From: Octopus vulgaris
Taxonomy: Eukaryota
Assembly: GCA_951406725.2 (NCBI GenBank)
Contig: OX597821.1
Span: 13,578,001-13,642,000 of the forward strand
Length of the DNA: 64,000 bases
Reading direction: 5' to 3'
The notes beneath the pieces are model-generated. The model saw nothing but the letters and a program-made list of their open reading frames with translations, was not told the origin of the DNA and did no database searches. Made by a program: the position numbers and the translations under genes. Below are positions 15,672-28,275 of this stretch, in pieces (the stretch's first letter is position 1; each line of letters starts with the position of its first letter).

Positions 15672-15770
15672 ACCATCAGAGCATCACAACAAATCACAGC
15701 ACATACCTAAGGCACACAGAGCTGCGCTCGGTAGTGCAGTGAAAGCACGCTATAAAAATAAAACTACTGA
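15672..15770 (+). mobile_element. 3' UTR-only insertion of a Dong/R4-like family (D)
   Basis: ~100-bp unique sequence between two (TAA)n arrays; it carries the shared 3' UTR stem-loop at 15699..15737. Confidence 0.6.
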
Positions 15771-15865
15771 ATAATAATAATAATAATAATAATAATAATA
15801 ATAATAATAATAATAATAATAATAATAATAATAATAATAATAATAATAATAATAATAATAATAAA

Positions 15866-16202
15866 TGGGGGAGTATCATAGCCATGTGTTGAGAGAACTT
15901 GTTTGGGGTTTGAATAATTAACCGCTAGAAGCATGAATGTTTCATTCATCATCCTTAAACAACCCTTATTCGGGGATCTTTCGAGCGGGATGGGCTACTC
16001 AGGCTCAAGAAAAGTCTAACTGGGCCCTACCTGCAAGATCATGCGCTGTTTATCTTGATATTAAATCACCATATAGCGCACATACGGTTGAGATCCATGT
16101 GCCAAGAGTACCCTTATCAGGCGGGTAATCATGATAGGTATATTGGGATTCGTATATTTGTACCCCAGTGTCACTTTGATTACATGCATTGCTCTCCCAT
16201 AC
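15866..16202 (+). mobile_element. 5'-truncated copy of the ~557-bp (TAA)n-targeted non-coding element
   Basis: Aligns to the 3' ~340 bp of 28317..28874; (TAA)n on both sides. Confidence 0.85.
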
Positions 16203-16316
16203 AATAATGATAATAGTAATAATAATAATAATAATAATAATAATAATAATAATAATAATAATAATAATAATAATAATAATAATAATAATAATAATAATAA
16301 TAATAATAATGATAAT

Positions 16317-16666
16317 AAATGTGGCATCTCAAGGCGGTTACAATACCAGTGATCGTAGGAGCACTAGGAATGATCAAGAAGGGAACCGAAAATTATATGA
16401 GAATGATCCCTGGCTTACCATCCCTGCAAGAAGTGCAAAAGATTGTCTTAACTGGTACATCACACGTATTGAGAAGAGCATTGTCGATGTGAGAACTGTT
16501 GCTACTCATGTATTTTAATTTAACTTTAAAAAAAAAAAAAAAAAAATGAACGAACTACTGAGTTTGGTTTAATGGCCTACCAATATACACTATGAGTTTC
16601 TTTGCCCTAGGAGTCGGGAAGACACTCGGCAAGAAATGGAAGAAAATTTGAAAGAACAAAAAAAAG
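16317..16666 (+). mobile_element. Dong/R4-like non-LTR retrotransposon, family C, 5'-truncated
   Basis: 16319..16492 translates MWHLKAVTIPVIVGALGMIKKGTENYMRMIPGLPSLQEVQKIVLTGTSHVLRRALSM*, homologous to the C-termini ending at 17900 and 28120. (TAA)n on both sides. Confidence 0.88.
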
Positions 16667-22912: not shown

Positions 22913-24784
22913 AATGAACAGTGTACATATATTGGTAATAAAGGTAGTTTAACCCCACGTATACAATCGAATATTCATTGACTACTTTAGAACTCCCCGT
23001 GATTTCCAGTTCGAATTCAGCCAGCTCAACCATGCAACACCATTAGAACTAGAGCCATAAATTTCTAGTTGAAGTGATATTGATATTTGGCTGATAGAAG
23101 TGCTATCGATCAACAGATTTCTCTTTCTTTTTTTAATTCTTTTTGTTATGATAAGTGGCTACCGAAGTGAGCGCTATCGTGTTATCATAGATTAGATATC
23201 ATACACTTAACTTTATTATATATTTGAGACAGGATTAAACGCCAGAAATAAAGCGGCAAACATCAAATACATAAGATATATCGACAGTAATATATTTAAT
23301 GTTATCAATAGGAAAATGAATAGATAAATCAATCTGGAAAAAAAAAAAGAAAATAAATAGCTAACAGAAGTAAAACAAATGATTATATAGAGAACACATA
23401 CAACAATCCATTGTGAATTTTATAGAAACATCACCTAACAATGTTTAACAACAGGTATTCGTTTCCAGGAATCAATTAAATTTGAAAAATTACCATAGAG
23501 TCATATCAAAATAAGTCTTTTAAAATGATGATTTCATATATTGTAACAGTTGTAACATTGTAAACAAGACTTATTGCAAGAGCCAGAGAATGGGAAGAGT
23601 CATTAGCACAGAAAGCTTCGCAATATTGGTTCCGATTCACTGTGATCAGTATTCAAAACCAACTGATGTCATCTATTCCTTTTCCATCTTTTCGCGGTAC
23701 ATAAAAATATATAACCACGCACGCAAGCAATCATATTCCGTTGTAGAATTCACGTATGCTTTGTAGAATGTGAGCAGTTGTTAAGAGCTGATATGTTTTC
23801 GGCATCCACTCTGTATATATGCATGCCAAAGGTCTTCACACATTAATACATGATCTTTCTTACTCGTAGAAACTAATCATATTCACGTTGTTAATCACAG
23901 CAGAATTTTTTCGTGCTCCAGCTTGGCCGCAGTCTAGTGATTGAAACAAGTAAAAAAAAATAATAAAAGGACTGTGATTTTTAAGAGATGAGAAATGGAA
24001 AATTGTGAATTTTTTATGAGATTAAAAAATGGCATGTTTTGGTGTATTAACCTTATCTTTAGCGAGGGAAGGTTCTTCCATACTTTCATCTACACCAAGT
24101 TTTCATCGACTTGGTCTCCGATCATCATTATCATCATCATCATCATCATCATCTTCATCATCATCATCATCGTCATTATCATCATCATAGACCATCATCG
24201 CTATGTTCATCATTATCATCATCATCATCATCATCATCACCACCACCACCACCACCATTATCACTATCGTTGTCATCGTCATCGCCGTCATCATCATCAT
24301 TAGCACCACCGTTATCATCATCATCATCATCATCATCATCATCATCATCATCACGAAAAATCTGTTACTAACTAAAACGTGTCTCTGACATTTAGGCATC
24401 CATGTCTTTGAGGCGAGCCACTGTTGGTGATGCTATGGAAATGAAAGAATTCCAAACATAAATCAAAACCCCAGTCGCCCGCCGATTGGGAGCCCTTCAA
24501 ACCAACTTCCATTCAGCGACAGGATAGCAACACAGGTTATATAAATCAAATTACAATACTAGGTGAGATACATACGTATTTCTCGCAAAAGAAATAAAGC
24601 TGCAGGTGAGGAACACATTTCCATACAAATACATACATACACACATACATACATGTTAGTTAGTTAGTTAGTTAATTTGGCTCAAAAGCAAATAGCAAGG
24701 CCATGTAGGGGGATATGGAGTTTGGTACAGGGTGGTGTTCATGTAAAGAGTTCAGGCCACTTGAGGTCAAGGGAGGCTTTGAAC

Positions 24785-26098
24785 ATACATACATACATGC
24801 ATTTATACATACATACATACATACATACATACATACATACATACATACATACATACATACATACATACATATATACATACATACATACATACATACATAC
24901 ATACATGCATGCATACATGCATGCATACATGCATGCATACATGCATTCATACATACATACATGCATACATGCATACATGCATACATACATACATACATGC
25001 ATACATACATACATACATACATACACACATACATACATGCATGCATGCATGCATGCATACATGCATACATACATACATACATATATATATACATACATAC
25101 ATACATACATACATACATACATACATACATACATAACATACATACATACATACATGCATACATACATACATACATACATGCATACATACATATATACATA
25201 CATACATACATACATACATACATACATGCATACATACATACATACATACATGCATACATACATACATGCATACATACATACATACATACATGCATGCAAA
25301 CATACATACATACATGCATACATACATACATGCATACATACATACATACATATATATATGCATGCATACATACATATATACATGCATACATACATACATA
25401 CATACATATATACATACATACATACATACATACATGCATGCATACATACATACATACATGCATACATACATACATATATACATGCATACATGCATACATA
25501 CATATATACATACATACATACATGCATACATACATACATACATATATACATGCATACATACATATATACATACATGCATGCATACATACATGCATACATG
25601 CATACATACATACATACATACATACAAACATACATACATACATGCGTACATACATACATACATACAGACATGTATACATGCATACATACATACATACATG
25701 CATACATACATACATACATGCATACATACATACATGCATACATGCATACATGTATACATACATTCATACATACATGCATACATACATACATACATGCATA
25801 CATACATACATGCATACATGCATGCATACATACATGCATACATACATACATACATGCATACATGCATACATACATACATACATGCATACATACATACATA
25901 CATACATACATGCATACATGCATACATACATACATACATGCATACATGCATACATACATACATGCATGCATACATACATACATACATGCATACATGAATG
26001 CATACATACATACATACATACATACATACATACATGCATGCATACATACATACATACATACATACATACATACATACATACATATATACATACATACG
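24785..26098. repeat. ~1.3-kb (CATA)n array interspersed with CATG units
   Basis: Read directly; source of the spurious 400+ aa ORFs. Confidence 0.95.
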
Positions 26099-26830
26099 TA
26101 CTACGTAAGTGAGTGTGTGTGTGTGTGTGTGTGAGCTATACGTAAATAAATCCATGTACACGGGACATTAATGAGATACGGTGAAATGGAAAACATTCTG
26201 TGATGATAGGTGAAACGTCTGAAGAAAGATGGTGGTGGTGGTGGTGGTGGTGGTGATGATGATGATGATGATGATGATGATGTAGTGGTGGTGGTGGCAA
26301 CAGGAGCGGCGACGGCAGCATTGATGGCGGCGGCGACGACGGCGGCAGTGATTGTGGTCGTCGACGTCGTCGTAGTCGTGGTGGTGGTGGTGGCGGCGGC
26401 GGCGGCGGTGGTGGTGGTGGTGGTGGTGGTGGTGGTAGTGGTGGTGGTGGTGGTTTTATTGTTGATGGCGATGACGATGATGATGATAATAATGATGATA
26501 GGGATGGTGATAACGGAGGTTGAGGTGTTTGTAGTAGTGACGAAGACGATTACTAGAATGAAGGTGACGAGCACGTGAGCACGAGGATGGAGGACGTAGC
26601 GACGGTCGTAAAGATCAGAAAGATGAGAGGAGGAGGAGCACGAACAGGAGGCAGAGGAGGCAAGGAGAAGGAAGGAATGCATTGCTCTCTCACTCAATAA
26701 TAATAATAATAATAATAATAATAATAATAATAATAATAATAATAATAATGATAATAGTAATAATAATAATAATAATAATAATAATAATAATAATAATAAT
26801 AATAATAATAATAATAATAATAATAATAAT

Positions 26831-28275
26831 AATACTATAAGAAAGGAATACTATAGGAGAATAAGGCTTGTACTGAAGACTGAACTCAACTCCAAAAATT
26901 GCATTGAGGCCATTAACACCCTGGCACTTCCAGTAGTCCAGTACAGTTTTAATATCATTAACTGGAACCTTACGGAACTCCAACGCTTAGACAGGAAGAC
27001 AAGAAAGTTACTGACATCCAAGAGCATGCACCACCCTAAGGCAGATGTAGACCGCTTGTACCTACCTAGAAGCAGCGGGGGGAGAGTAATGATGCAATTA
27101 GAGCTGTGCTATAAGACCTCTACTGTAGGAATGAACAGGTACCTATCTAGTACAAAGGACTGGATGCTGCGACTTGTGCGCGAACACGAAAGCAACAAAA
27201 AGCTGCATTCTATTGTCAAGGAAGCTTATAAGTTCGAAAGGGAACTAGACATTAACCTTGAATCAGATGAAGAGCCGGAAACCACTGCTACCAAGCAAGC
27301 AAAGCGAATCAAGCAGACTGCAAAAAAGAACGGGCAGAATCAAATTGAGAGGCGGTGGAGCCAGAAGCCCCTGCATGGACAATATATTCTCCGAAGCCAA
27401 AATGCTGATGTAGACCAAGCAACAACCCATCAGTGGCTGAAGAGCTCTGGATTGAAAGCAGAGACTGAAGGTTTCATAATGGCAGCACAAGATCAAAGCT
27501 TGTTTACCAGAAATTACCAGGCTAACGTTCTCCGAAACGGTACTGACCCTAAATGCTGATTCTGTGGCACATTTGACGAAACGATAGACCATCTCGTTTC
27601 GGGATGTCCTGTGCTGACACCAAACGAATACAAAAATCGCCACGATAGGGTAGGACAGTATATACATTGGAAGATATGTAAACACTACAAATCCGACACT
27701 CCTGCTAACTTGTATGAACACCATCCTCAGCCAGTTGTTGAAGGTAAAGATGTCACCATCCTCTGGGATTTTCCAGTCAACACTGACAGAACGATCAAGG
27801 CTAATCGACCAGACATAATTGTTAAAGACAGGGAAGAAAATACCTGCAGACTAATAGAAGTAAGCGTCCCCACTGATAAAAATGTATCTGTCAAGGAATT
27901 TGACAAACTTAGTAAATATAAGGACCTGGAAATCGAAATACAGAGGATGTGGAATCTTAAAACAAAAACTGTTCCTGTTATTGTAGGTGCCCTAGGTATG
28001 ATAAAAAAGGGATGTCAGAAACACCTAGACAATATCCCTGGAAAACCATGTCTCAAGGAAATCCAAAAGATTGTGCTAACAAGTACTGCCCACATCCTTA
28101 GAAAAACCCTATCAATGTAAATGTCTGTGTTTGCATTACATGGAGATATATCTCTACTTCCCCTCCCCAAGCTTTCAGCTATATTTCAACAACTCTTAAC
28201 CTTCACTTGCCCTAGGGCGCTGGGTGTGCCCCGGCAGGTGATTGCATCAAACATGCAGATTAAAAGTAAATGACA
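26831..28275 (+). mobile_element. Dong/R4-like non-LTR retrotransposon, family B, 5'-truncated (ORF remnant 26831..28120)
   Basis: One frame from the RT thumb region (EYYRRIRLVLKTELNSKN..RLYLPRSSGGR) through TEGFIMAAQDQ, CCHC (C*FC..ETIDHLVSGC), RHD and RLE (RPDII..E..K..KY). Single TGA at 27557, probably CpG decay of CGA. (TAA)n on both sides. Confidence 0.93.

Follow-up and report, generated by a model that had tools for sequence, protein, structure and literature searches.

Retrotransposons of four divergent Dong/R4-like families, A to D, lie in a 64,000-nt stretch of the Octopus vulgaris genome (GCA_951406725.2, contig OX597821.1, 13,578,001-13,642,000, forward strand; hereafter the window, to which all positions below refer), and each carries the same hairpin at its 3' end, as an earlier note on this DNA had proposed. 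We found that this hairpin is a real, deeply conserved RNA motif. It has a common fold of ~40 nt in 22 families, consisting of an outer stem, a 3x1 internal loop and an inner stem of 6 bp topped by a 5-nt loop, and covariation is present across the consensuses of these families. Judging from sequence, we put at roughly three in four the probability that the hairpin is a handle, bound by the element's own protein to select its RNA for target-primed reverse transcription (TPRT).

Structure and conserved bases of the motif

The four hairpins quoted in the earlier note are found, all on the forward strand, at 18044-18082 (family A), 28204-28240 (B), 16597-16636 (C) and 15699-15737 (D, with a 6-nt loop and the weakest fit), and they fold as described there; the 3-nt strand of the internal loop is located at 18053-18055, 28212-28214, 16607-16609 and 15708-15710, respectively. 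The inner stem had been given as 6-7 bp, of which the 6-bp form stands: the 7-bp register of family A was dropped for a one-base shift that lines up the conserved bases and gives TGA as the 3-nt strand, T as the 1-nt strand and 6 bp in the inner stem. The proposed distance of ~30-35 nt to the (TAA)n tail holds for A and D (32 nt each), but it is 38 nt in B and 37 nt in C. Compensatory changes in the stems are borne out by the covariation, although the stems are imperfect, with an A-A mismatch in the inner stem of C and an A-C mismatch in that of D. The remainder of the 3' untranslated regions (UTRs) shows no such likeness: blastn between the consensuses of the four families gave no pairwise match at E<0.01.

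Families beyond these four were sampled from the flanks of searched copies, because the elements nest in each other's tails. The 292 ends of open reading frames (ORFs) that had a tail (52 without a tail were dropped) were clustered, and consensuses were obtained for eleven families from this genome and for two more from metagenome contigs; other records contributed single copies. The covariation alignment comprised 22 families and did not include M3 (decayed single copies), the non-autonomous element S described below, families N, O and P, or three insect-type copies. The C-terminal protein identity among the 22 families is 36-69%, and 84% in the sister pair C/E. At least 12 motif-bearing families are co-resident in one genome. 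In the protein tree, which is unrooted because it lacks insect-type reference proteins, named relatives from cnidarians, a crustacean, an echinoderm, a tunicate and insects interleave with these families.

Several bases are nearly or fully invariant. The pair closing the outer stem is C-G (C in 20/22 families, G in 22/22), the 3-nt strand reads Y-N-A (Y in 22/22, A in 21/22) opposite a single nucleotide, the inner stem starts with G in 21/22, and position 3 of the loop is G in all 22; the loop has 5 nt except in D, where it has 6. Pyrimidines face each other across the 3x1 loop in 19/22 families, in a geometry that is predicted only. A 6-nt loop is also seen in family P, represented by two decayed copies. 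Families G, H, I, J, B and K and element S often have another hairpin, a variable one, in the stretch that separates motif and tail.

Two known RNA elements were considered and rejected. Iron-responsive elements have a CAGUGN-type 6-nt loop, a 5-bp stem and a bulged C; only family D has a similar 6-nt loop, without the C, and no match to the Rfam iron-responsive family was found. The histone 3' stem-loop combines a 6-bp stem with a 4-nt U-rich loop; the loop here has 5 nt with G at position 3, again with no Rfam match. Matches to Rfam in 15600-29000 are dominated by simple repeats (among the best 150 of 163 matches), and narrower scans gave nothing relevant.

Some observations concern the records in which relatives were found. 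Short contigs of these animal-type retrotransposons occur in bacterial genome bins (L221-L224, L275-L280), where they are probably host contamination; scans of viral contigs found no relatives. One motif-bearing family from another record (L275:1292-1447) ends in a long A run rather than TAA repeats, at a contig end, which may be an assembly effect. A subfamily of family G (8 copies, including L024, L051, L053 and L056) has a tandem duplication of the ORF end with half of the motif, the complete motif being in the downstream unit.

Tests against chance

The Y-N-A/G descriptor matched in 19/24 3' regions, compared to 0.42 expected from dinucleotide shuffles and 1/24 in antisense; a structure-only descriptor matched 21/24 regions versus 7.0 in shuffles. 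Both descriptors are post hoc. A covariance model, one of the checks suggested in the earlier note, was built from the window's A, B and C alone and run on 33 chosen loci (99.6 kb; E-values are rough), where it recovered 14/20 held-out families at E<0.05. Among the 27 rows at E<0.05, 26 were matched to motif positions and one high-scoring row is uninspected; the first off-motif row has E 0.15. A family found after the covariance model labelled R2 had been built (L275) scored E 0.011, and four neighbouring 10-kb control stretches gave no model match at E<=3.

Twenty sequence segments of fixed length align gaplessly in MAFFT. In these, 88.3% of 300 cells (20 segments, 15 pairs) are paired, compared to 31-46% in slid controls, and 14/15 pairs show two-sided changes; RNAalifold, unprompted, gives the same structure. 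Covariation was assessed by a G-test with product correction; for the null model, substitutions were redistributed over the protein tree. Of 741 column pairs, the 11 ranking highest are without exception stem pairs; four pairs have E<0.05 over all 741, and ten have E<0.05 when only the 15 proposed pairs are considered. Absence of such covariation had been named in the earlier note as grounds for giving up the motif.

These results bear on the possibility that AT-rich 3' ends simply yield unrelated hairpins, the likeness being made by structure-guided alignment. The 7.0 of 24 shuffled regions that match on structure alone, and the post hoc nature of the descriptors, are what such an origin would give. 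The recovery of held-out families, the gapless MAFFT alignment, the invariant unpaired G and the clean 10-kb controls all argue against it, and we regard it as very improbable.

RNA strand and selection

Counts over the ten core pairs are 19 for G-U and 3 for A-C, an excess that favours a structure in the sense RNA. In inserted (dead) copies of nine families, divergence is about equal in the motif and in its flanks; hence the structure is maintained by mobile founders and not by the host. Variation in the motif of family B is too scarce to count: among the changes listed for contigs of four sequencing runs, one falls within it, 28237 G>A (U-G to U-A), in one run. If the hairpin acted at the DNA level, or had been exapted by the host and retained in inserted copies, one could point to the fact that inverted repeats fold on either strand and that the antisense is the more stable in 9/22 families; the G-U excess and the equal decay of motif and flanks largely refute both, and we give this reading next to no weight.

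Non-autonomous element S

Element S is an abundant ORF-less element of 557 bp, with three copies in the window inserted in the Dong orientation. One full-length copy (28319-28875, forward strand) directly follows the tail of the family B copy and has TAA arrays on both sides; another lies at 41841-42397 on the reverse strand, and a 5'-truncated, decayed copy at 15866-16200 on the forward strand. All 30 copies found with S as the query end at 555-557, whereas their 5' starts range over 1-292, and a TAA array is present on the 5' side in 23/30 and on the 3' side in 28/30. A fixed 3' end, a variable 5' start and TAA flanks are the hallmarks of elements inserted into the Dong target by TPRT. S was also considered as a tRNA-derived SINE (short interspersed nuclear element) or an internally deleted element; both were rejected, since it lacks a tRNA head, an A/B box and any Rfam match, and aligns with no parent among full-length B and the sampled UTRs.

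The motif recurs in S as a variant located about 67 nt upstream of the tail; its outer stem has 13 bp, and the 3x1 loop and the loop G are present. In the first full-length copy the variant is at 28774-28821 (3-nt strand 28787-28789), with a bulged A in the inner stem and the loop G lost; the second has it at 41896-41941 with the loop G intact, and the truncated copy has a degraded motif region at about 16108-16146. A descriptor that permits the S bulge matches once in the 557 nt, on the sense strand, compared to 4/1000 shuffles, and to 0/1000 if a 10-bp outer stem is required. With only 12 bits from the covariance model, we consider the S motif good, although not decisive, support for a shared tag.

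Tail, stop codon and the proposed function

The distance from the stop codon to the motif varies from 0 to over 150 nt, and the distance from the motif to the tail (measured from the 1-nt strand over the 22 families) holds at 34-78 nt. In families G, H and L275, and apparently in O (L038, L035, L275, L316), the 3-nt strand is itself the stop codon, and the 5' arm of the outer stem is coding; G, H and L275 are in one branch (support 0.99). As for the tail, junctions of family B start with AAT-GAT in 21/38 distinct copies, compared to a 7.8% GAT background in the arrays, and those of family M1 have a GA-type first unit in 14/14. Such family-specific first units suggest that the first repeats are likely to be templated by the element RNA.

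In its position the motif follows the tail and not the stop codon; it is kept by founders, and it recurs in the ORF-less S. Together these observations fit a cis signal for TPRT. The sense transcript would fold the hairpin, whose loop G and bulged A would be read by the protein, the stems merely setting the geometry. The RNA contact is probably made by a basic helix that directly precedes the reverse transcriptase (RT), comprising residues about 431-475; this is the most basic stretch of the protein and a long predicted helix, and its proposed role follows from analogy with the R2 -1 region (as described in PMC5678591). The pyrimidine mismatch and the 2-nt bulge might act as a hinge by which the UAA repeats reach the nicked TTA strand, the presumed primer of the cDNA. 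S would be mobilised in trans, since it displays the same tag.

Alternatively, a host factor and not the RT could read the hairpin, to form the 3' end of the element RNA, to stabilise or export it, or to terminate its translation. The doubling of the 3-nt strand as a stop codon in the families named above would suit this reading, and a motif recognisable in all families is expected of a host-factor site; the 6-bp GG...CC stem is also reminiscent of the histone stem-loop. However, the stop distance varies while the tail distance stays within 34-78 nt, S has the motif but no ORF, and there is no Rfam match to the histone, iron-responsive or SECIS (selenocysteine insertion sequence) families. A host-read signal is therefore unlikely.

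The hairpin might instead be mechanical for the element protein, serving as a hinge, in slippage on the UAA repeats or in the timing of DNA cleavage, with the template chosen via cis preference. A bulge and a U-U hinge have been proposed to aid slippage in UnaL2 (PMC1636434), and a motif common to at least 12 co-resident families cannot distinguish them. Still, the invariant unpaired loop G suggests a base-specific contact, and S, being mobile without an ORF, needs recognition in trans; we regard a purely mechanical role as improbable and retain the handle for template selection as the preferred reading.

A broader proposal is that a single portable 40-nt tag is shared across a branch of retrotransposons with a restriction-like endonuclease (RLE), spanning several animal phyla, and is read by all proteins of that branch. 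Families would then cross-mobilise each other and S, and the hairpin plus UAA repeats would suffice to write any RNA into TAA microsatellites. The tag could perhaps even be the ancestral handle of LINEs (long interspersed nuclear elements), in which case it would have arisen at the stop codon and share its origin with the L2 hairpin. We offer this only tentatively, as a possible but doubtful extension.

Several results weigh against the motif or its proposed role. In 2.16 Mb, a looser descriptor also matches at 416 unrelated places. Structure guided the registration of the 22-row alignment, which favours stem pairs, and the test is not an independent R-scape run. The A/B/C model has no match at E<0.05 in M2 (0.14), L144, M3 or S (2-3), and misses D and L152x; family D is not recovered by either covariance model in about 100 kb, and with the 20-sequence model it has the worst fit in the window (12.4 bits, E 0.64). 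In family N the first base of the bulge is G and the score is weak, and O is seemingly closed by T-A (two decayed copies). The sense strand is the more stable in 13/22 families and the antisense in the other 9, and both stems have p>0.5 in 16/22 when whole 3' regions are folded. S scores only about 12 bits with the covariance model, its inner stem starts with T-A, and blastn against full-length B and all sampled UTRs found no autonomous partner for it. Finally, the three insect-type copies (L152, L195 and L150; single and decayed) have no model match and only looser stem-bulge-stem hairpins. If Bombyx Dong sits in the insect-type branch, as we suppose, the motif may not cover the namesake of the clade.

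Family B and clade membership

Family B is young: 150/150 scored matches are 98-100% identical, several of them in open frames of >1300 codons. A full-length copy has a single ORF of 1293 aa with an RVT_1 match and a weak zf-RVT match; the sole Cys/His motif found is a C-terminal knuckle at residue 1106, with no N-terminal zinc finger. Absence of an N-terminal zinc finger is a feature of the R4/Dong clade. The best matches of the protein, both by sequence and by fold, are R2 proteins (predicted local distance difference test score, pLDDT, 90.4; template modelling score, TM, 0.53-0.60). The full-length copies inspected have TAA arrays at both ends, and Dong, of the R4 lineage, is described as having a TAA target (PMC3774820). 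The layout of one ORF with RT, CCHC knuckle and C-terminal RLE, together with the TAA target, fits placement of these families in the Dong/R4-like RLE group, in line with the earlier note; no named R4, Dong or Rex6 reference is among the homologues listed. In a 2026 annotation of the octopus, Dong-R4 comprises five recently active families, and its accessible text mentions neither a UTR nor a stem (PMC13282606).

Residues about 140-220 of the family B ORF (L034) are modelled as a small helical N-terminal domain with pLDDT above 90; it contains a Trp motif and could be a Myb-like module that binds DNA to recognise TAA. At the 5' end of family B (L034 about 1430-1520; L031, L032), the first five bases equal the Bombyx Dong 5' primer, and there are partial features resembling the hepatitis delta virus (HDV) ribozyme; no Rfam ribozyme match was found there, with no dedicated ribozyme descriptor applied.

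Other features of the window

The four motif-bearing copies are all on the forward strand. The family D copy (15673-15769) is 5'-truncated down to the 3' UTR and has TAA arrays on either side; D has no ORF in the window, and other D copies link the same UTR to an RT/RLE ORF. Family C (16319-16666) retains a frameshifted ORF end followed by the 3' UTR. The family A copy (16878-18114) is 5'-truncated and comprises linker, CCHC, RLE and 3' UTR, with the stop codon at 17898-17900 and one internal stop; that of family B (26834-28274) has a 5'-truncated linker-CCHC-endonuclease ORF, with the stop codon at 28118-28120 and also one internal stop, and is followed by a TAA-type tail (28275-28318) whose second unit is GAT. 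A further decayed Dong-like ORF fragment without a 3' end is present at 48946-49128. Repeats of tRNA-like SINE type at 18175-18694, 18878-19394 and 42461-42560 adjoin TAA/TTA and TAG arrays, with no tRNA found by ARAGORN; their tails may have been seeds for arrays later targeted by Dong elements.

Comparison with known systems

To our knowledge, the choice of RNA by RLE retrotransposons other than R2 has been little studied. A motif of 40 nt with two or three invariant unpaired bases, together with a young family with intact ORFs, makes for a short list of mutants for testing. The motif also provides a new RNA family and a means to assign orphan non-autonomous elements to their partners. For microsatellite-targeted insertion templated by RNA, it is a candidate for a minimal tag on the template.

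What appears to be new is the motif in R4/Dong-like elements; hairpins for 3' recognition as such have long been known. They are on record for L2, plant L1, R1, RTE, Tad1 and R2 (PMC3747384, PMC5135761, PMC3472496, PMC4758252, PMC9115989, PMC4640811, PMC5678591, PMC3774820). We found no 3' structure for R4/Dong in the full-text literature, as far as its accessible text goes, Repbase, supplements and the original Dong and R4 papers being outside this scope. For Bombyx Dong, the RNA structure described in the accessible text is a 5' HDV-like ribozyme and no 3' structure (PMC3774820). The Entamoeba pairs EhLINE/EhSINE and R4-1_ED are LINEs of the R4 clade whose 3' ends recur in SINE-like partners (PMC3747384), which implies stringent 3' recognition in this clade; the accessible text of that source gives no structure, and the likeness to our families is by description, not by sequence. 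The stringent 3' hairpin of the plant L1 clade was likewise inferred from compensatory changes, with variable stems and a few conserved bases in the loop and flanks; in contrast to the present motif, it belongs to another clade, has other conserved bases and precedes a poly(A) tail (PMC3472496, PMC3747384).

The earlier note had likened the motif to the structured 3' UTR of R2. A structured 3' end is indeed common to both, as are a single-ORF protein of RLE type, with R2 providing the nearest solved structures, the retention of structure at low sequence identity, and non-autonomous parasites (the R2 SIDEs, short internally deleted elements) that use the 3' end (PMC5135761, PMC3774820). However, R2Bm needs about 250 nt (PMC5135761, PMC3774820), compared to about 40 nt here, and there is no Rfam R2 match at E<=10; the target of R2 is 28S ribosomal DNA and not a TAA microsatellite, and S has no alignable parent. 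The short stem-loop and repeat tail of L2/UnaL2 are closer than the R2 3' UTR of roughly 250 nt. UnaL2, from the eel, needs three features for its mobility: a G that is recognised in a 5-nt loop, a hinge made of a bulge and a mismatch, and a repeat further downstream (PMC1636434). Like zebrafish L2, it resembles our families in its short terminal hairpin with two stems split by an internal loop that here would act as a hinge, a key G in the 5-nt loop, a short-repeat tail downstream, and a hairpin shared with non-autonomous partners (PMC1636434). The differences are that L2 is a LINE with an apurinic/apyrimidinic endonuclease, whereas the elements here are of RLE type; that its key base is G2 of GGAUA, in loops described as highly variable among L2 elements, whereas here it is G3, invariant in 22 families; and that its hinge is a bulge with a U-U mismatch (PMC1636434), the place of which would be taken here by the 3x1 loop.

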